Below are positions 1-52,424 of a stretch of DNA of 64,000 nucleotides, piece by piece. How positions within the stretch are numbered: position 1 is the first letter of the stretch; the number at the start of each line of letters is the position of its first letter. The notes beneath the pieces were generated by a model that ran no database searches, was not told the DNA's origin, and saw only the letters and a list, made by a program, of their open reading frames with translations. The stretch lies in NCBI GenBank assembly GCA_964106915.2, contig OZ066914.1. One strand, given 5' to 3'. The position numbers and the translations under genes are program-made. This DNA comes from Podarcis gaigeae. Taxonomy: Eukaryota.

Positions 1-1112
1 TCAAAGACATGTGTGTGTGCGCGTGTGTGTTGAAATTATGCCATCAAAACCAAGTGCATAGTAAAATTGCCAAAATAAAAAAATTAAGTCCTTAGCTGAA
101 TTCAATCTGTAAATGATAAGCATAAAAAATCAGTCCCTGAGCAGATGGGTTCGTTTTTGTTCTTTGTATTCCCATTCTGCTTTAAGCTGTTTATGGGAAG
201 AAATTGGGTGTCCTTGCCACATAATCTTTGTTAAATCAATCTTACAAAAAGCAAATTATAAAGACCTTGCAAAAGCCTGTTGATTATCAGAGAGCAGCTG
301 TTTGAGCTCCTTCTCCCCAGCTTTTATTATAAACTCTGTACTCCCTACCACCACCACCCATTCATAAATACGCAGGTAAATACATTAGCAAGAAAATAAG
401 CAGGTTAATCTACCTCTGAACCAAATAGTTGTATTAAAACAGAATGATCAAGTATCCACTGAATGATTACTGTATCAATAGAGTAAAGGAGGTAACTGTG
501 AAGAGGGAAAGAAAGGGGCAGGAAGCATCTTGAACAGTTTAGGCTGGAACCAGCATCTGTTATCCTGGAGGTTTATTCTAATCCATAATGATATTACGAG
601 TCTACCGGTCGTGTTACTGAGATTTAACAATAGTTGCAGGGTTGCCAGCCTGAAACTGTTGACTTAATATCTTATTCAGGGAAGATTCTGTTCTTCTGAC
701 ACTCTTTTGTACACTAGTGATATTTTTTACTATGTGTCCTCAGTCCTTCCTGAAGCCAGGAGGTATTCAAGTGTTTCATTGCCATGCATTAATATACTGA
801 GTTGTAAATGTTTCATTGTCAACACAATTTTGCCCCAGACAGGTAAGTGAAAAGTAAATCAAGAAGATGAGTATATGCATTGGCAGATGTTGAATTGGTC
901 CCCTTTGAACTTCATAACCTTAGAGTTTCATAAATAACCCAACAATCAGAGAGGTGTTTTTTTTAAAGCTGAACTTTGTTACATCCTTTATTTCACTTCA
1001 TCTTGTTAACTGTTTGTCGGCCAATTTTGCAGATGCTTTTGCTTTGTAACTCTACAGTGTCTCAGTCATTCCATTTTGTCATTTTATTTGCTCTCATGAC
1101 TGCCGTTAACAG

Positions 1113-1139
1113 AAGAGGGGCATTCTGAAGTGCCATGAA
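1113..1139 (+). other. SHANK2: Candidate 27-nt SHANK2 alternative microexon with in-frame stop
   Basis: TGCCGTTAACAG|AAGAGGGGCATTCTGAAGTGCCATGAA|GTAAGT; UGC at -12 from the acceptor; YCAY clusters on both sides. Confidence 0.5.
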
Positions 1140-1627
1140 GTAAGTGATGACCAAAGGGGGGTTATTTGGGGTTTGTTTCTTTTTTTAATCCATGCATTGG
1201 TTCACATTAGTTACTTTTTGTTTGTTTTTCATTCATAGTTTGGATTAGATATTTCTCCTATCCAGAAGTGGTAGCCATTCTTTAAAATTCACCATAGGTC
1301 TTCATCATTAGACCATTTCTTACATAACTTTCACCAGATAGTACTCCTGTTAGGTATCATTCATCAAGAAACAGGAAAAGGGTGCAGGTAACTTTAAGGA
1401 CATTTTCTATGAGTTCTGGGTGTGGTTTTCCAGGCTCATTAGCACAGCTGGTGACGTGTATAAAGAGAAGAAGTTGCAGTTTGCAACTGCCTGCAGAAAG
1501 AGAACACCCACATGCTTTGTGTTTGTTGTTTGTATAGCCATAATAAAACTCTTGTTTGAGTGTTTTACACCAGTCTTGTGGTTCTGTCATCTGCCACCAG
1601 GGAAAATTTGCCTCCAACAACTACAAC

Positions 1628-1810
1628 TCATTGATTTCAACAAGGCTTAGGCATGGCTGAATTTTATCCTTTGGCTCAATTCCTCATATTTTAATTTAAT
1701 TTTTTTTTAACTCTAGTTAGTGTGTAGTTAAAAAATAAATAAATAAAAATATGAGGAATTGAGCAAAAGGATAAAATTCAGCCATGTCTAAGCCTTGTTG
1801 AAATCAATGA
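1628..1810. repeat. Long inverted repeat (arms about 85 bp, short loop)
   Basis: TCATTGATTTCAACAAGGCTTAGGCATGGCTGAATTTTATCC... mirrored by ...GGATAAAATTCAGCCATGTCTAAGCCTTGTTGAAATCAATGA; two mismatches in the outer 65 bp or so. Confidence 0.95.
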
Positions 1811-1867
1811 CACAGTCAAATGCTTAATTTATATTGCATTGTACTTGTAAAGCCTCTTACCTAGTGT

Positions 1868-2056
1868 CAGTGATGACTGGTGCCCATTGGGAATGATAGG
1901 GCAGAAGGCCAGGTGACCAACAGTAGATAGAGCCAGAGCCAGTGATTGGCAGAGCCATCCCCTAACTGGTTAAAAGTTGAACGTCAAACAGGTGGCTGAG
2001 AGCAGAATGAGGTTGATGGGCAATGCCCATTAACCCCAATGGACCAACCTCCACTG
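1868..2056. mobile_element. hAT-type MITE
   Basis: CAGTG...CACTG imperfect TIRs; 8-bp TSD CCTAGTGT/CCTAGTAT. Confidence 0.75.
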
Positions 2057-3384
2057 CCTAGTATGGTGGCATGAACTATTGGCACAAACGATTAAGTTAT
2101 TGTTCAGGTTGCTGAAAGTTTCAGTTCAATTTCCGTGAGGGAAAGGGAGAGTGTCAGTTTGGTTGGGAGTAAGAAGTTGCACGGGGGCAGACTTAGGACT
2201 GAAAATAGGTCCTGGGTTGTAGAGAAATTAATGGACAGAAAATTTAGAGGCAAGGAATCCGAAGGAAGGCTCTGAGGAAGACAATCTTGAAAGTAAAGTA
2301 AGCGGAGAATGAGGTAAGGTGCAAAGATGACAGAACTGTGGCAAAAGTGGTCTCTGAAGAAACTTCACATAGCTTATGTCACTCCTGACATATGCTGTAG
2401 AAGGAGAGCTAGGTAGGCTAGTTAAGAAAAATGTAGGTTAACAAAGTAGCTGTGAGGTCTATAACAGCCTTCATCAAACTGGTGCCTTCCATATGTTTTG
2501 GACTACAGCTCCCATGAGCCCCAGCCAGCATGGGCAGGTTGGCAAAGACTTATCTAGAATCTAGATACACCAAGAAAATTCTGCCAGTTATTGCTTCTGC
2601 CTTTAGTGTAGCGTTGTGAACTGGCAACAAGTATCAATAAGCAGTGCAGGTGACTGTATTTCACATATTGAGATTTTCTAGGCAGCCATTTCTTCTAGTC
2701 TATGATTGTATCGCACATAATTACGATGACAGAGAAGCCTCTGGTATTTGTTGGCTGAGCTGGTGCAAACTCATGCACTTTCCCAACTGCCAAGGAAACA
2801 GTGTTGTCAGAATATTTTCTGAGGCAAGGAGGACCTCTGAAGAAATTGCATAATGCTTAAGAACTAGAAGGTCTATGGGGGAAGAGAGATGAATGTTGTG
2901 GAGAATCTGCACATGCAGCAGATTGGCTAAAGCAGTGGGACAAAGTAGGCAGTGCATTAAAAAGCAGAGGTCTGAGGAAACGATGGGTGGGGAAGGGATG
3001 GGAGTTTCAGAAAACAAGAGCCAATGAAAACTTCAGATGGGGCCTAGGAACAATAGTGGCAAGACAGAAGTCTGAGTGTCACTTCTGGAGGGCTGGAGAC
3101 TATGCTGGGTTGAAGAATATCAAAGGGGCACAGGTTTGCTAACCTATACTTCAGGTTGTAATGGAACTGCTATACATTTAAGACATACCGTACATAGATT
3201 GGAATTTGTGTTAGTGGTGGCATCTGCTGACTCCACCTCCCCACCTCCCACCAAAGCTGGGGTTGCATGGCTTACCAGGTTACATGTCTGTAGCGTTGGC
3301 TTCCAGGTTCCCCTCCCAGAGAAGTGGTCACAACCAGCTTCCACGAAAATCTCGCCAGAACTCAGAAGCCTACACTGCAGTTGC

Positions 3385-4235
3385 TTCTTCTGTGAGATGT
3401 TCTGGGTTCCAAGCACTCTTGGAGGAAACGGATTTTCTAGATCCATTTCAGTCAGCATTTAGGCCCAGCTTTGGCACAGAAACTACATTATGATCTCTGT
3501 CAGGAAAGAAATGTGTTCTGGTCAATTATCAACTTCTCAGTGGCTTTTGATACTATAAACCATGGTATCCTTCTGGAGTGGTTGTTTGAATTAGGGGTGT
3601 GTGGCACCGCTTTGTGGTGGTTCTGGTCTTACTTGGATGGTCATTTCCAGAGGGAGATGCCGGGGTTTGCTCTTTGGTCCTGTAGAATCTTCAGTGTAGA
3701 GTTCCTTGGGGTTCAATTTTATCCCCTATGCTGTTTAACATCTACATGAAACCCCTGAGTGAAGATACAGAATTTTGGAGTATGTCATCAGCAATATGCT
3801 GGTGACACATAGCTCTACTTCTCCTTTGCATCTGCAGGTGTGGCAGTGGATGTGCTGGACTGATGTCTTGCCTCAGTTATGGACTGGATGAGAGCCAATA
3901 AATCGAGGCTCAATCCAGATAAGACAGAGGCACTGTTAGTGGATAGTCCCTGGATCGGATGAATGGGAGATTTCCTGCTTTTGATGGGGTTACACTCCCT
4001 CTGAAAGAGTGGTCTCAGTGGTCTCAGTGGCGTGGAGTGCCTTCCATCAGCTTCAGCTTGAGGCCCAGCTACACCCCTATCTGGACAGGGATAGCCTAAC
4101 GTCTGTTGTATATGCTCTGGTAACCGCTAGGTTAGATTACTGCAACACATTATACGTAGGGCTGCCACTAAAGACTGTTTGGAAACTTCAGCAGGTGCAG
4201 AATTCGGCATCCAGCTTGCTCGCCAGAGCAAGACA
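3385..4235 (+). mobile_element. Degenerate L2-clade LINE, RT fragment
   Basis: Frameshifted motifs FLDPFQSAFR..GTET, FSVAFDTINHGILL, QYAGDT (YADD), [20 protein letters not shown]. Confidence 0.9.
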
Positions 4236-4727
4236 GCTTGAGCTGCAAAATGACAGCCACTTGAAAGGGGACTGATTGCAGAAGTTGGGGGAAGAGACCT
4301 TCAACACAAATTCAGGATTTCCTCCCAATGCAAACAGCCGCTTCAAATGTATTATTTTGGTCATGACTCCAGCAGGGAAATAATAATTTAATCTCTCACT
4401 CTCCCCACCCACCGACTGCTGCAATCTTGATCATTATAAGCCCCACACCAGGTGGCTATTATTTGAATTATTTAAAATGCATATTAAAATAAAGATGAGC
4501 ATCATGTACAGTTTGGCTCTACATCCTGTGGTCCTAAGTTCACTTACTAAATAGCAAATTCCATTGAATTCATGAGAACTTTCTTATGAGTAAACATACA
4601 TAGGATCACATTGTACATCTTATAAAGATGTTTGGGCAACAGTTTGGCATATAAATGACTCTTGTGTCCATGTAGTTCTTTGTAGCAGGAAAAAAAACCA
4701 CCTTGTATATTGAAGCTTTCTGCTATT

Positions 4728-5004
4728 TAGGGCTGGGCAGTGTCTGATTTTCAACATTGTGATATATCACAAGCTAAACATCACAATATACTGATATATC
4801 ACAATGTCTGAAACAAGGATGGAGCTATGTAGAGGCATTGGCTGGCTTCATGGTTTTTCCCATACTGTAATTTTTTCATAGCATGCATGCGCACACACAC
4901 ATATTGTGATTCACGATACACTGCCAGGTCAAAAATTATGAAACTGATATCACTATATGGATTTCAAACTGGTTTTGGGCATGTTGATATATCGCCCAGT
5001 CCTA
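4728..5004. mobile_element. hAT-type MITE
   Basis: TIRs TAGGGCTGGGC / GCCCAGTCCTA; TSD CTGCTATT/CTGCTAGT; internal GATATATC repeats. Confidence 0.85.
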
Positions 5005-6224
5005 CTGCTAGTAAACGTTTGTTTAAAATGTAGTACTATATTTAAATCCTATTAAAATGGCTCAAAATAACTTAATAGGAATTCATGCCTACAGACTGCT
5101 TTTCCTGGGAAAATTCAGTGATGTGACACAGTAATTACATATTGTGAAATAATCTAAGACAACATAATGTGTATTGCAATCAGAGAAATCAAAGTAAGTG
5201 AATATTTGCAACAAAATATCACTGTATGCTTATTCCTAATAGAGCCAGCTTTTCATATATATATATATTCCTGACAATATAAAAAGCCATATTAGAAAAG
5301 TAAATTTGGTTGGAAAGAATTGTCTCTAGTCTAATAGCCACTCATTGACAATTTACAGAAAAGGGTATAGTCCGAAGTTGCTAACAGATACTTTATTTCT
5401 CACAGCTATGGATGTGGATGTGTTTGATATTTCTAGAAGAAACTCTTTCCCCGCTTCTGACAATCAATATTTTAAACAGCTCAATTTAGTATTTTTTTAT
5501 TTCTGAAAGATTTTTTTAAAATCCCTAACTCCTCTGTGTTTAAAATGCACAGCTTTGGTCTGGATGTCATTTAATGTAATTTTTTTATATAAATCATTAT
5601 TTTGGGTAAATTTTCAGGTCCTTTGTGTTTGAATTACAAATCAATAACCTTTGACCAATGTTTCTCTCACTGTGATTCTAAAATAATTATCACAAATTCA
5701 AAGAAACTATTTAGACATGCTGGGAATTGTAAGCGCTGGTGATTCGTATTTGGCGTTTTTCCTGCAGCACTTCTGTCAAAGAGAGAAGCTACTTTTAAAA
5801 CTTAACAGATGTTTCCAACTTGGCAGTGGAAAGTGCAGCATTAAATACTTCCAAGTTGTCTTCTTCCTCCCATTCACCTAAATAGCTTCATGGGCAAAGT
5901 CTCCTCAGGCTACATTTTCAAGTCTGAGACATGTTTTCCTTTCTGCCAGAGAATGTGGTACATACCCCATTGTCCTGTTTGTTAGCATGCCATCAAAGGC
6001 ATGTTGTCACTATAGACATGTAGTATGGTGTGTCATAAGGCCAGAAGCAATGCACAGAAAGGAAGAAATGAGCCTGCATGTGCTGTGCACATTTTGACCC
6101 ATCTCCTTAGTCTTTTTATTCTCTGAGATAACAATCTGCTAAGAATGTAAAACAAGATGTTAGAGATTGAAGGCTTGTCCACAGTTCTGCTTGTTCCATG
6201 CCTAGAAAGCACAGGTCCCAGAGG

Positions 6225-6671
6225 CATAGCTGTCAACCATCCCTTATTTGGCAGGAAAGTCCCTTATCCCAGCAACATGTCCCACTGCTGTCCCTTATTG
6301 ATGATGTCCCTTAAATTTCCCGGGTTTCAAAGGAAGCAGCTCTTCTCCCTCCCTCCCTGCCGGCCAGGGAGGAGGGAGGCTCCAACTGTGTTGCTTGGCT
6401 GCATTGCTCACCTAATAAGGAGTCTAAGAATGACTGGGGGGTGGAGCTTGCATGCTTTGTGCCGATCAAATTGGCCGCGTTGCCTGGGACTCGCCTTTGC
6501 TCAGCGCTTCCCAGTGGAGAGGTGACGGTGGGTTTCCTTGCTGCACCCCCTTTGCCGGGTTGCTGCGTTGTGGGAACCACCACTTGAGGCTTCGTTTGGC
6601 TGCTGGTTGACTAAAATCCCTTATTTTGGCTGCTGATCCCTTATTTTCAAATCTGTAAATTGACAGCTATG
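6225..6671. mobile_element. hAT-type MITE
   Basis: TIRs CATAGCTGTCAA / TTGACAGCTATG; perfect 8-bp TSD CCCAGAGG; subterminal CCCTTAT repeats. Confidence 0.92.
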
Positions 6672-8183
6672 CCCAGAGGTTTTTCTCTTGCCCTGGAAAA
6701 ACAAATGGTTTACTACAAAATTGGAACACATGGCAATCTGCAGAAAGCCCAATTGCCACCTGTTCCAATTCAGCATTAAACCATGGGTTTTCCCAGGGGA
6801 AAGTGATGGGGAAATTGGAAGTGTGGACAAGCTCTAACAATCAACATTCTAGAATCCACAGTAATTTTTAAATTATTTTTTTACCCGCTGTAATTTACAG
6901 TGATTTCTGCAGAAATTGAATACTGACCTTAGAAAACCTTTTCTTTAGTTACAAATAACATTTTTTTCGTATTCTTGCTAATTCTTTACTACCATGTTGG
7001 GAAGATTCACTGTTTGAGTATTAATACTAGCCCACCCATGCTGCACTTTAAATCACTCCTTCTGCTTCTCTGTATAGGAATTTGACATTTCCGATGTCCC
7101 ATACATTAGTTGTTGTACTACTACTATGTAGGTTGTGCCACAAATGAACTTCTGAACTCTCTTTTATGACCACACCAGAGAGGGAAGGGGGAAGCATGCT
7201 AACCTGGGGGCAGGCAAGACTTGTTTCCGTCCACTGACCTGCATAATGCTAAGCCAAACTTTATCTCATTCCAGACAAAGTGTGATCTGTTATCAAAGAA
7301 TTATATGGTTTACCACACATGGTTTGTCTGGGGGAGATAAACTGTGACCAAGGCTGGCCCAAGACATTTTGACACCTGAGGTCTCATTCATCATTTTCTT
7401 CCTTTGAACATGGGAGACTAGCAGTGTTAGTCAGATTTCAGATTTCCCCAGGTTAAAAAGAGCCTTCAAATGAGCTGGATCTGTAATAGAATCTTGCTTT
7501 GACAAATAAAAACAGGGGCTGCTCTTCCTTATTTTTAGCCTTTAAAAAAATTAAAATGCATTATTTTGTATATTAATAAAACAGGATTCATGAGAAATGC
7601 CAAAAGTAAGGATGAATAAAAATCTATAGTCCATACACATTCATTTACTCTTAGTCCCAGAACTCTGCTAGACTGGTAAAGAAAAAGCGATTTATATGTG
7701 TTGCATGTGCGATTTAACATTGTGTCACCAGATGGCGATGTGGAGTCCCATTTTTCTTTACCTGTTTTCCCTGTTTAAATTTACAACGCTTTAAAGTGAA
7801 ACGCTTCTTTGATGTGTCTAGAGCCAGCCCTGATCATAACATTAAAACAGGCAGGCAGATCTTCAGAGCAATTGATACATATGTGTGTCTTTCATCCTTT
7901 AGTTACCTATTGATAAACCCCTCTTGCTTTCCACCCTGCCTAAGCATAGACCTTAGGGTTACTTGTCAGGAACCAAAGCATGTCAGCAAGACCATCTCCA
8001 AGATAAAACTCTCTCAAAACGTGTTTTTGAGTGCAGTATCTGTTCACCAAATTTGATTCACTGGGTGCAAAATGTATTTTCTCTGGATTTTTTGGAGATT
8101 TCAGCTCTCTTTTATTTGACTTACTATGTGGGTATGCAAATATCTGCCCCACCTCTGGTCCCTTAATATACTGTACATAGGAT

Positions 8184-8545
8184 CAGGGGCGAAGGAAGGG
8201 GTGTGTCCTGGGGGCGGGTCACCCCGGGTGTCACCACTAAGGGGGGGGGGCGACAAAATGCCGAGTGGCACTCACCGCGGGGCCTGCAGCACGCCCGAGC
8301 CACGCATCTCGTCTGGGAATGACGCGGTGACTTGGGCGGCCGCAGGCTTTGCGTGCCCCAAACAGTCCACCCACCGCCTTCCCCTCAGCTGTAGGGCAGC
8401 TAAGTGGGAGGAGGCAGGCAGATTTCTCGGAGGCCCCGCAGAGCGCCCTGCCCTGGCTCACCCCGCCCCGTAGGCGGCTGGCCCTGCCCCTGGGTGCAGG
8501 GCACACATGCCGCCCCAGGCGCCCAATTGGCTTGCTCTGGCAATG
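8184..8545. mobile_element. GC-rich hAT-type MITE
   Basis: Starts CAGGGGCG; GC/CpG-rich body within an AT-rich intron; TSD CATAGGAT/CGTAGGAC (6/8). Confidence 0.7.
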
Positions 8546-9144
8546 CGTAGGACTACCCCTGATGAGCCAGGTCAGTGTACTAAGAGCATTCAGCTAGTTC
8601 AAAACACAATGGTCTGCCTCCTGAAGGTAAAGTTCCCAAGCATCAGAACTGAGTTCTTCTAGGATTCTGGCCTATGCTTAGCAAGACTGGTTTCAGCATA
8701 TAACTTACCTTGGGAATTGCCTCCTCTTCTGTACCCTGCTGTGATCTCTTAGATGTACTTTCCTTAGTGCATCATCTGTGCAACAAATTAGAACAATGAC
8801 ACAGAAAAGCATCCTTGGTTGTTTTGTCCAGTTTTGGAACTGTCTTGTGAGATTCACCAAACTTAAACGCCTTTTGCTACCATAATGCTTTTGGGGCAAT
8901 GATTCAGTGGCTAGAGTTAATTTTTAGCAGCATATTTGAGATTGTCTTTGACTTTTAAAATATTTGTAAAGCTTGCTCATAGTTTTCTGCCACTATTGTT
9001 TTCATAAAGTCGTATGGTATCTCTTTGGCATTTATATATATATTTAATACGTAATTGTGTCATAAGTTAGCAATGAACTGATTTGTATTTTTAATACGTG
9101 GAGAGTCTGAATATTTCCTGTTCATTTTTATTTGTTTATTTCAG

Positions 9145-9718
9145 GGGCACAGAAGTCATGAGCACTGTCTCAGGTACTCGAAGTTCAACCATCACTTTTA
9201 CTGTCCGGCCTGGGACTAGCCAGCCAATCACACTGCAGAGCAGATCCCCAGACTATGATAGTAGGACACCAGGAGCAAGACATGCTCCAAGCCCAGTGGT
9301 TTCACCAACAGAAATAAGTAAGGACATCATGCCAGCTCCTCTGACTGCTGCTGCTCCAGTTGCATCTCCTTCTCCAACACTTTCTGATGTTTTTAGCCTA
9401 CCCAGCCAGCCTCCTTCGGGGGACCTCTTCGCTTTGAACACAGGGCGCAGCAGGTCTCCTTCTCCCTCAATCTTGCAACAGCCAATATCAAATAAGCCTT
9501 TTACAACTAAGCCTGTCCACCTGTGGACCAAGCCAGATGTGGCAGATTGGTTGGAGAGTTTAAACTTAGGTGAACATAAAGAGACCTTTATGGATAATGA
9601 AATAGATGGCACTCACTTACCAAACCTTCAGAAGGAAGACTTGATAGACCTTGGAGTGACTAGAGTTGGTCACAGAATGAACATAGAAAGAGCCTTGAAA
9701 CAGCTACTGGACAGATAA
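9145..9718 (+). CDS. SHANK2: SHANK2 terminal coding exon (Ser/Pro-rich linker + SAM domain)
   Basis: Acceptor TTTGTTTATTTCAG|G (AG 9143-9144), phase 2. Translation GTEVMSTVSGTRSSTITFTVRPGTSQPITLQSR...KPVHLWTKPDVADWLESLNLGEHKETFMDNEIDGTHLPNLQKEDLIDLGVTRVGHRMNIERALKQLLDR* matches the recognised SHANK2 C-terminus. Synteny with CTTN and PPFIA1 agrees. The ORF-track start at 9098 is intronic. Confidence 0.97.
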
Positions 9719-48360: not shown

Positions 48361-50848
48361 CTGAAATTTCAGAAGAAACAGTGACATTAGAATAAAAAAG
48401 GTTTCATACTTGCAGTAGAAAATAATTCTGCAAGAATCACATTATTATTGCCAGGAAAAATATATAGATTCCACCCAGTGAGAGGTTGGTTAATGGCTTT
48501 GCTATGGTTAGATACTGCCAACAACTGCAATTCTAAATGGGTGTACATTTAGCTAACCCCACATTGTTGCAAGCTGAATACTCTTGCCATTATTCCACAG
48601 CTAGGAATAGTTACTGGCACCATTTCAAAGGAAAAGGAGGAAATTCATTCCGGTAAGAGCCAACATTCATATGTTTGATTCATTCATTCATCTGAAACAC
48701 ATTGTGAACCAGCAACAGAAAGGGAGGCCTGTTCAGAGAAGGCAAGACACAAGCTGAACTGTTTAGCCAGCTCACCTCTGCACACTTACTGCAATACAAG
48801 GTAGTTTTTGCTTCTACTATTATTTATTGCAATTATGGAAATGGGTGATTTTAAAGGTAGCTTCTCTTTATATAAATGAGTTTCAACTGGGATAAAAATG
48901 GCCATGGGCATTAATTAAAGACATGTGGACAATCTGGAGCAATTTCTTGCAGTTTGAAGACCACCCCAGTTCCATATAGCTCCTCTCCCCACAAAACATA
49001 CCAGACCAAAAATAAGGCTGCAATGCTCTGCAAATCACGCTGATTTCAGCCAGGCTCACTTTAGAGTAAGTGTGCTTGGGATTACATACAGTTATCAACA
49101 TTCAGAGAGGATCAGAGGTACTGCACAACCGACAGCATTTCAGCCTCTCCTCTTTTGCAGACACAAGAGATATTGAGTTTTCCTTTCCAGCTCTAACCTT
49201 TCTAGTTTTCCACTGAACATGGTTAGCAGCTCAGTGGCTTTAAATTTCCTATGCAATTTGCTGTTCTGGCCAATTTCTTTCAAACCAGGCTGGAGAGAAA
49301 CGTTATCCATGAGTCATTGACTCACACAATTTCTGGAAAAGGGGTAAGGGGGTGGGGAATAGAGAACTCAGACAATCAGACACGCTGGCTACTTTGTTCT
49401 ACTGATTCTTCAGCAGCCAGAGAGGAATATTATTACTGTATCATTATTATATTTGTACCCCACACATCTGACTGGGTTCCCCCAGCCACCCTGGGTGGAT
49501 TTCAACATATCAAAACATAATAAAACATTTAAAAAAATTATCCAGACTGTAGTCAAGAAAGGAGGGTGGCATGCAGAGTGTATTTTATACAGCAGGAAAG
49601 TAAAAAGTGGTGTAGCAAGTCAACCCCAATTGCCTCAGAAGAATTTTTTCACATTAGCTACCCATCCTATAGGTCTGTGCTATAGAAGATAAGGTTACTG
49701 CATTTGTGTACATATCCTCCCTAAGTGAGCAAAGAGCAGGCCTCAAAATAATACCTTAAATTAACCATTGTCAGTAAACTCCCTTTCATGGGTATTTGGA
49801 GTTTCTTGACTTGTATACCACATTTCTGCAGGTATACTACATATACTGTATGTGCCATTTGGGTCAGAAAGTCAGATACATCCAGCATCTATTAATTTTA
49901 GGACTACAGGCTTCTCTGTGCCTTTAAAAACAGTCTGGCATGCAAATACTGGGCAAATGAAGCTTTTCATATCACTAGTTCAATATCAGGAAACTGGTTT
50001 GCCACCAACTAGTGTTGGGTAAAATATAAATACACTCTTTATCACTAAACCATGGTTTGGCCATCAGATAACATTTTGTCTGGACCCAACTTCTCACGTC
50101 GATTAGAAAAAGAGGAATGAGGGAATCTATGGTCAAACGAATGTTGGGCTCCGAACTCTCTCCAACCCCAGCCAGCATGACCAATGGTCAGGGTTGATAG
50201 AAACTGTAGCCCAGGAACATTTGGGGTGGGACACAGGCTTGCCAGCCCTGCTCTAGGAAGTGCAATGAAGTAGGAAATAAAACAGAGTGGGACATAGACA
50301 ATTAGATTCAAAGCTGAAAAGGCAAAGCAATGACCACAACAGAAATAAACATCTTCAATAAGCACTCTTCATTGAAACAGTGGATAGTCCAGTGGTATGT
50401 GGACTTCAGAATGAAAGAGTCCAACTTCTGCCTGCGCCATGAGTAACATTTTGTGTGACTGACTGAATCACAGGCAATGAACTACCACAGAATTACAAGC
50501 CGTTTCCAAATCCAGTTGAACAGTGCTCTTATCTGGATTCCGAAAGAACACTGTCTCACAGGATGACAAGGGTAGGCCCGGCACACATCAACATCCGTAG
50601 GATGAACATAACATGCAGTTAGGCAGTAGTTTTCAGACACATGATCTGAGGCAGTGCTCATGACCTGCTGCCTCCATAAACTATTGGTTCACGTGCCATG
50701 GCCTTTTGGTAATTATAAACATGGAAATGCATCTAACAAGCGCAAATAGGCATCCCCTCAATGCTCCAGGAAAATCATTGCGCATCTCCCTATTGCCTTA
50801 ATGGCTAAGAAGTGGGTGGGGGTGGGGTTCAATCACAGGACAAAGAGA

Positions 50849-51004
50849 AGGGCTATTAGCGTGGTGGCAGAGTGCCTATTTTGCACTCAGGTCTCCAGTT
50901 TCATCCCCAGCATCTTCAGGTAGCCTTGGAGAAATCTTGGAAGGCATGTAGACATGCTGAGCTAGATGGACCATTGCTGGGTGGGCCTGGCAGCTTCATA
51001 TCCT
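50849..51004 (+). mobile_element. Degenerate tRNA-derived SINE (Squam3-like); related copy at about 59283-59400
   Basis: A/B-box-like head and tail GAGCTAGATGGACCA...GCAGCTTC. Confidence 0.55.
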
Positions 51005-51199
51005 AGAGACACTTATGGGTAATTTTGATGGTCACCCTGCCAGAGTTCTTACCAGCTTTAAGCTTCTGGGGAGCAGCAACCCCAAGATGAAGCTGTCAAA
51101 TAACTTCCTTCTCCTGAGATCCAACACCACACACAATGATATTGTCCTGCTCCAGGCAAGCCCATCCAGTTTTCGCATCCACAGCCACTAGCCTGAATT

Positions 51200-52330
51200 G
51201 CAATCCATGCGCCCAGGAACATGCCAACTGCCCAAGGGGGCGGGCAGTCCTCTCTCCAGCACGATGCTGCCCCCACGAGCAGGCACGGAGCGCGGGCACG
51301 CAGGGCGAGCGGAAGAGCGAGCCAGGAAGGCGCTCCCCTCCCTTCGGGAACGAGCGTCCCAGACAAGGAAGCAAGAGCAGCTCAGCCCCCTTCGATCAGC
51401 TGCCTCCTCGCCACCGAAGAACAAAGGGCGATCAAAGCGAGGCAGCCCACCCAGCCAGCTACGGAGATGCCATGTGGCACCCCAGCCCCCACTTCCTCCC
51501 TCTCACTATACGACTCTTCTCCTTTCTCCTCCCCTCCCAAATCTCAATCTGGGCTGCTCCAGGTACGGGCCCCACCTTGCAGCGCCGATGCCCTAGTTAG
51601 ATCCCAGAGATGGCCATGCTGCGCGTGGCGCAGAAATCAGAGCCAAGGCACCCCCCCCCACCCACTTGATTATTTTTTTTAAGCCCCCACGCCTGGCTGC
51701 ACCTCCCCGCTCCAGCCAAGACCCGAGTCCCGCTACCAGCAAGCGGATCGCGGGCGGCAGGGACCCTCCCGGCTTGCGGATCTTGCTGCGCCGAGGAGCC
51801 TCCCCGTGGCTGGCGCAAAAGGCGAGCGGCGCGAGGGAGCACCTGGCCGGGCTCCTGCCACTTACTTTGTTCCCAGCCCACTTCCTGGCTGCCCAGGCGC
51901 CTTCCTCTCCCGATGCAGCGTCTTCTCGCTTTCCCCTGCTGGGGCTTCCTAACTCGGCTGGTGCTGCAATTTCCGCCTCTCCCAAGATCCCGTTTCCTGT
52001 TTTTCATCACAGCGCGTCATCAGGTGGGAGAGGACTAAAGCGAGCTGCCGGTGGTGGTAGCCACTCGGCTCCGGGCGGGCTTTGCAGCAAGTCTGCAGAA
52101 ACGGGGGTAGCCTATATTGGAAGCCCATCGATGCGCCCCTCGCTTCTCCTATGCAAAAGCTCCCGGACCCTCTCTCTGCGCCGCCTCTTTCTAAGGCGCT
52201 TGCTCGGATCCCCAGCCCGCTATCGGAGCATCGTTTCTTGTCAAAGCGTGCAATGGCTTTTGCCATTCAGAGGGTGGGAGTGGGGGAACCCAGGCGTTCA
52301 AGTCGGCCGGTGGGTGGGCGGGAAATTTTA
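51200..52330. promoter_or_regulatory. CpG island / CTTN promoter
   Basis: Sharp rise in GC and CpG content; GGGCGG boxes near 52074 and 52316; CCAAT on the minus strand at 52116-52120; ETS-like GGAA motifs; CRE-like CGTCA near 52015. Confidence 0.85.
51866..52000 (-). other. CTTN: Putative CTTN non-coding exon 1 (5' end uncertain)
   Basis: Consensus donor ACAAA|GTAAGT at 51866/51865 inside the CpG island. The coding exon begins AG|ATG, so an upstream UTR exon is required. Confidence 0.65.
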
Positions 52331-52424
52331 CTAGCAATTGGATCACAACGTCTACCCAAAAGCAAACCACGTCTCACTGATTTCAGTGGGGTTGGCTCCC
52401 AGCTAAAATGGGCATGGGGTTATT

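Follow-up and report, generated by a model that had tools for sequence, protein, structure and literature searches.

The last intron of SHANK2 in the lizard Podarcis gaigeae contains a 27-nt exon with an in-frame stop codon (Table 1), which is almost certainly real and conserved in sauropsids. On balance this exon is likely a cassette that some of the transcripts in neurons include, and its inclusion, as read from the sequence, would give a SHANK2 protein without the SAM domain. The splice signals, the early stop and the matching tails of sauropsid proteins together suggest a switch that is probably old. The analysis was carried out on a contiguous stretch of 64,000 nt, hereafter the window (G000:C1:58342001-58406000).

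Comparison of the terminal exon and of the upstream proline-rich exon with SHANK2 proteins identified the gene as SHANK2. The large proline-rich penultimate exon is located ~6.4 to 4.0 kb upstream of the window, shares 99% identity with Podarcis SHANK2 proteins and ends in phase 2 at the donor AAG/GTAAAT of the same genome (the slash marks the splice junction). The last intron measures 13,165 nt, and the 27-nt exon sits inside it. A preliminary description of this DNA had named the gene and had deduced phase 2 from the terminal exon; both matches support the gene call, the upstream exon confirms the phase directly, and every coordinate given there proved correct on recheck.

Table 1. Features of the SHANK2 last intron and terminal exon (positions in the window).
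Feature	Position	Strand	Remark
Possible 4-nt exon or recursive splice site, CAG/ACAG/GTAAGT	839..842	+	Perfect donor; may be chance; absent from the preliminary description
AG-free zone, 45 nt	1066..1110	+	Pyrimidine-rich tract, four YCAY, CTCTC at 1091-1095
UGC (TGC)	1101..1103	+	Position -12, between pyrimidine tract and 3' splice site
3' splice site CAG	1110..1112	+	Seven of seven RefSeq tails fit the upstream AG
Stop-containing exon, 27 nt	1113..1139	+	After the phase-2 upstream exon reads R-RGAF and stop; matching tails in seven sauropsid predicted proteins
In-frame TGA	1126..1128	+	Its end lies 11 nt short of the last exon junction
Second TGA, offset-2 frame	1136..1138	+	Putative alligator stop, judged from a predicted protein; absent from the preliminary description
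5' splice site GAA/GTAAGT	1140..1145	+	Seven of nine matches to CAG/GTAAGT
YCAY cluster, 13 motifs	1190..1364	+	Densest such stretch in the window; predicted NOVA enhancer
SHANK2 terminal exon, coding part	9145..9718	+	190 codons: linker and SAM domain, then stop

The exon falls within the 3-27 nt range of microexons and is bounded by canonical splice sites (CAG / GTAAGT). A UGC at the position found here is the signature of SRRM3/4-type microexons, and its combination with an AG-free zone, although weakly discriminating, is present upstream of 1113-1139. A second AG at 1114-1115, followed by a third at 1116-1117, would create a 24-nt form reading R-GAF and stop. This tandem acceptor had been pointed out in the preliminary description and does exist in the DNA, but the 24-nt form is rejected, as it is used by none of the seven protein tails among the matches listed; all seven start with R-RG and hence point to the 27-nt acceptor.

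Given the phase 2 of the upstream exon, inclusion reads R-RGAF with a stop that ends 11 nt before the last junction, exactly as had been proposed. When the exon is skipped, 190 more residues including SAM are translated; when it is included, these 190 residues of the terminal exon are replaced by RGAF. The offset-2 frame ends at the second TGA (Table 1), and the offset-0 frame is open and can be reached only via the possible 4-nt exon, in which case the terminal exon is out of frame. Every modelled use of the exon thus removes SAM; the product retains the PDZ, Homer and cortactin motifs, all of them encoded upstream. Inclusion also turns 9145..9718 into 3' UTR, which becomes ~0.6 kb longer. 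With 11 nt between stop and junction, the exon stays below the 50 nt that delimit an NMD-escaping penultimate stop exon, following the 50-nt rule for junction-dependent NMD (PMC7392665; papers are cited here by their PMC identifiers, for the accessible sections of each). A poison exon acting through splicing-coupled NMD was rejected, since it would need a stop farther than 50-55 nt from the last junction.

Conservation was assessed on 541 proteins from three protein searches, one cluster-representative search and three cluster look-ups, with the best 120 of 628, the best 120 of 398, all 65 and 22 matches listed per search and at most 15 members per cluster. After 39 proteins without the anchor motif had been set aside, 502 span the junction. 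Among these listed matches, SAM is contained in 436, another 51 break off at the exon boundary (for the most part genomic frames continuing into the donor), 8 end or join in some other way and 7 carry a short RG tail. The tailed isoforms come from seven species, are all RefSeq-predicted and have the tail immediately behind the penultimate exon. The tail is RGAC and stop in Lacerta agilis (P0162, XP_033006178.1) and RGSC and stop in the turtle Pelodiscus sinensis (P0069, XP_075783814.1), the birds Athene cunicularia (P0188, XP_026706604.1) and Falco rusticolus (P0435, XP_037258129.1), the cordylid Hemicordylus capensis (P0536, XP_053141965.1) and the gecko Paroedura picta (P0541, XP_077178225.1); Alligator sinensis has RGRAEVL and stop (P0220, XP_025052907.1). 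No Podarcis isoform with the tail occurs among the matches listed. All seven isoforms are long (1642-1679 aa), lack SAM and contain PDZ, Homer and cortactin motifs as usually defined.

The Lacerta tail differs from the window exon by one base change, the best fit of all positions in window 1-9144, and the RGSC tail by two, tied with one other position (3216). Without a frame shift the whole alligator tail would require 12 changes; with RG read in frame, its RAEVL and stop match the offset-2 frame of the window from 1121 onwards at the cost of 3 changes over 18 nt, which 3 of 9126 positions equal. Judging from this predicted protein, the alligator exon appears to be 1 nt shorter and to stop at the second TGA, and the fit suggests that lizard and alligator have conserved bases past the first stop as well. 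On the same kind of evidence, selection would seem to keep the truncation and not the tail peptide. A terminal cysteine (RG[S/A]C) is shared by six of the seven tailed isoforms, and phenylalanine replaces it in the window (1122-1128), so that it is not strictly kept. The conservation across amniotes for which the preliminary description had called is therefore found at the protein level within sauropsids, in the form of seven predicted SAM-less isoforms among the matches listed. Such RefSeq models usually draw on at least some aligned RNA, and this is the sole, indirect sign of the exon's expression.

Apart from the 27-nt exon, the penultimate boundary may itself end translation, as read-through of its donor AG/GTAA (L002 5978-5982) meets a stop immediately. 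In birds, two long isoforms predicted by RefSeq (P0194 and P0449) end exactly at this donor, another route to SAM-less SHANK2.

What inclusion achieves can be read in a different way. The exon could be real and conserved and yet act as a dosage off-switch or arise as a low-level by-product, with an mRNA or a SAM-less protein that is unstable or inert. The stop persists although the tail varies by lineage (F, C or a change of frame), the tail occurs in just 7 of the 502 proteins among the matches listed, inclusion lengthens the 3' UTR as described above, and SAM loss impairs synaptic targeting (PMC3034012). On the other hand, a stop at 11 nt from the last junction is unlike that of a typical poison exon, the comparable exon of Cltc is NMD-insensitive (PMC13676984), and the conservation beyond the first stop implied by the alligator tail argues against pure noise. 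We regard this explanation as credible but rather unlikely.

The tails would look no different if the 1113 acceptor opened an alternative last exon closed by intronic polyadenylation, which would give the same protein and replace the long SHANK2 3' UTR; the RefSeq proteins fit a cassette and a last exon equally, and AATAAA occurs at 1542, 1734 and 1742. This is nevertheless improbable given the good donor GAA/GTAAGT 27 nt past the acceptor and the YCAY cluster just downstream. Furthermore, the intron is rich in AT and has many AATAAA/ATTAAA signals (14 in 1140-9144), and those at 1734 and 1742 fall within an inverted repeat. That repeat (1628-1810) is MITE-like, with 85-nt arms that are 94% complementary and 13 nt apart, lies ~490 nt downstream of the exon and could form a hairpin in the pre-mRNA.

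For NOVA, a YCAY cluster downstream of an exon acts as an enhancer, and YCAY upstream of or within an exon is usually silencing. Four YCAY motifs precede the exon (1066, 1071, 1079 and 1094), one lies inside it (1133, overlooked in the preliminary description) and 13 form the downstream cluster; the earlier counts of four upstream and more than ten downstream are confirmed. The arrangement expected of a NOVA-activated cassette, with YCAY motifs clustered downstream of its 5' splice site, is thereby present. Thirteen motifs per 176 nt are the maximum over the + strand of the 64 kb (fraction of windows with at least that many: 8e-5), and elsewhere in the intron at most 9 occur per 176-nt window. 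In dinucleotide shuffles, at least 13 motifs were reached in 21 of 5000 for 1146-1395 and at least 18 in 3 of 5000 for 1013-1395, both windows having been picked after seeing the data. Upstream of the exon there is no enrichment, since the four motifs were matched in 1651 of 5000 shuffles of 1013-1112. The UGC signature had likewise been put forward; it is indeed present at -12, but does not stand out from the background, as 506 of the 2217 YAG sites in the window have a TGC within -18..-4. UGC and upstream YCAY were accordingly rejected as evidence, neither exceeding background, and the motifs alone would not make the case. The literature search found no paper joining Shank2, Nova2, a cassette exon and CLIP.

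A further reading, which has little going for it, is a conserved cassette that is non-neural or free of NOVA/SRRM control, for instance in the epithelial SHANK2E. All seven tailed isoforms are long, as such a reading would have it, but automatic models are often joined to the longest form, whatever the tissue. Many tissues express SHANK2 (PMC3276563) and the UGC signal is weak; against this stand the strong downstream YCAY cluster and the brain specificity of the other short alternative SHANK2 exons (PMC3276563). That a chance pair of cryptic splice sites lies in the intron is very unlikely and largely refuted: the + strand of the window holds 162 YAG..GTRAG micro-candidates, seven of them with a pyrimidine fraction of at least 0.6 plus UGC, yet it is to this one that the tails of seven species of squamates, turtles, crocodilians and birds map.

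For the neuronal cassette, the following mechanism is proposed. NOVA bound to the downstream YCAY cluster would promote neuronal inclusion, if its general position rule applies here, and SRRM3/4 at the UGC might assist, by the usual rule for such sites. The included mRNA would be expected to escape junction-dependent NMD under the 50-nt rule. Its SAM-less product would still bind GKAP, Homer and cortactin, would form no Zn-dependent SAM polymers and would be targeted poorly to synapses. The short form may then compete without polymerising, so that less SHANK2 is effectively available to form the lattice. SAM is needed for the synaptic targeting and Zn-dependent polymerisation of Shank2 (PMC3034012, PMC11371640), so that the short form is predicted to bind partners and build no lattice. 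SHANK2 uses SAM to reach the synapse and build the postsynaptic lattice, and a single SAM missense change that disturbs nanoclusters has been linked to a neurodevelopmental disorder (PMC11371640). In its broadest version the proposal is a speculative one that we think unlikely to hold in full: an amniote-wide, neuron-type-specific NOVA/SRRM4 switch, also present, undescribed, in the last intron of human SHANK2, whose stable and Zn-insensitive SAM-less product would compete for GKAP, Homer and cortactin and loosen the postsynaptic lattice.

Outside sauropsids, none of the 106 junction-spanning, mostly mammalian and amphibian proteins among the matches listed has the tail; 69 contain SAM and 37 end at the exon end. 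As these 106 include no named human, mouse or rat isoform, the mammalian negative is weak. The 65 proteins of the search for a mammalian counterpart have lengths of 431-1372 only. A metagenome scan gave a single locus among the matches listed (38 of 64 parts), a teleost-like stretch of shank2 that includes ~5 kb of intron and has no similarity to the exon region (L011, score 25), a comparison that is uninformative on conservation.

In print, no stop exon was found described for the last SHANK2 intron, and Lim et al. 1999, which reportedly gives Shank2 splice sites, could still cover it, as could subscription journals, splicing databases and most supplements. The catalogue of annotated penultimate exons in the supplements to PMC7392665 (Ensembl 98) names SHANK2 three times, always in human and for other events, and lists no stop-bearing penultimate SHANK2 exon. 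Nor do the accessible sections of PMC11449796, PMC11328446, PMC12953806, PMC13240960 and PMC13247117 mention the exon, the long-read Shank2 tracks of PMC11328446 lying beyond those sections. The exon is thus apparently undescribed in print, though present in automatic annotation.

SAM-less SHANK2 forms are known from mammals, and the preliminary description had raised a possible link between them and the exon. One such form ends in exon 22b (PMC3276563, PMC6060255). SHANK2C / AF141901 (exon 22b) and human ENST00000357171 resemble the lizard product in lacking SAM, but they either stop ahead of the proline-rich exon or leave it out, and lose the Homer and cortactin sites, whereas the lizard exon drops the terminal exon only. 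As the source of AF141901 it was rejected, because the stop of exon 22b precedes the proline-rich exon and the lizard exon follows it. The link therefore finds no support: the mammalian forms found in print come from other events, and the lizard exon is not the source of these.

Late alternative stops and short forms are also known from other postsynaptic scaffolds. In SHANK3, exon 21b lies between the proline-rich exon and that of SAM. It carries an alternative stop (PMC4154644, PMC8421777), and absence of SAM is predicted for the Shank3 variants E21-22S III/IV (PMC4113141). As with the SHANK2 exon, the outcome is a late alternative stop or SAM loss, although in another paralog and, for E21-22S III/IV, by a stop within exon 22. 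The last intron of lizard SHANK3 (19,775 nt) is also in phase 2. Homology of the 27-nt exon to exon 21b nevertheless finds no support in the DNA, the local alignment of the exon region with this intron scoring 25 against a mean of 23.7 and a maximum of 29 in 30 shuffles, a result that old homology could also leave after decay. Homer1a is a short postsynaptic scaffold form without the oligomerisation module, as proposed here for SHANK2, and arises by activity-induced intronic termination. The likeness extends to the SAM-less Shank1 isoforms mentioned in PMC3034012; Shank1, however, targets synapses through PDZ, and SAM loss costs it less than SHANK2 (PMC3034012).

Within SHANK2, exons 19, 20 and 23 are brain-specific (PMC3276563), and a 9-nt Shank2 microexon responds to SRRM4 (PMC11283458). 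The brain-specific exons, this microexon included, are short and alternative like the lizard exon; exons 19, 20 and 23 are placed between PDZ and the proline-rich region, and the domains downstream are kept, whereas the lizard exon belongs to the last intron and brings translation to an end. A precedent for a penultimate stop microexon of the kind proposed is mouse Cltc microexon 33, whose stop is less than 50 nt from the last junction and which escapes NMD and shortens the C-terminus (PMC13676984). According to the same source it is muscle-specific, 38 nt long and confined to mice and rats, in contrast to the 27-nt, sauropsid-wide SHANK2 exon that removes a polymerisation domain.

Several other elements were noted along the locus. 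The 4-nt site (836-848 with its flanking signals) lies 270 nt upstream of the 27-nt exon, and either use of it, as exon or as recursive site, would also remove SAM. It has no protein support among the matches listed: one of the 541 proteins (P0106) has RQ at the junction, with a mismatched continuation. YAG/GTRAG occurs four times per window strand, so that chance is a plausible origin. In the last intron of lizard SHANK3, a candidate 35-nt frameshifting exon (G000:C21:2246546-2246512, minus strand, in L009) combines a pyrimidine fraction of 0.78, a TGC and a GTAAGT donor; it is one of 12 candidates, and its inclusion would drop SAM. The region 50001-52331 of the window is GC-rich (0.535 in 50001-52000), contains an open frame of 245 codons (51597-52331) and is likely the CpG-rich start of a neighbouring gene. 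A 287-codon open frame in a SHANK2 intron, ~20.5 to 19.7 kb upstream of the window (L004), is possibly transposon-derived and by eye unrelated to SHANK2.

The principle is known already from SAM-less SHANK1 and SHANK3 forms and from NMD-escaping penultimate microexons, and the isoform had gone unremarked in automatic annotations; the surprise is therefore limited. Removal of SAM is the only consistent effect of the exon across lizards, turtles, crocodilians and birds, which points to regulated production of a non-polymerising SHANK2. The finding would carry the greatest weight if a mammalian counterpart exists. Should the same hold in human, misregulation of the microexon or intronic variants would open a route by which SHANK2 function is lost in autism and which has gone unscreened.
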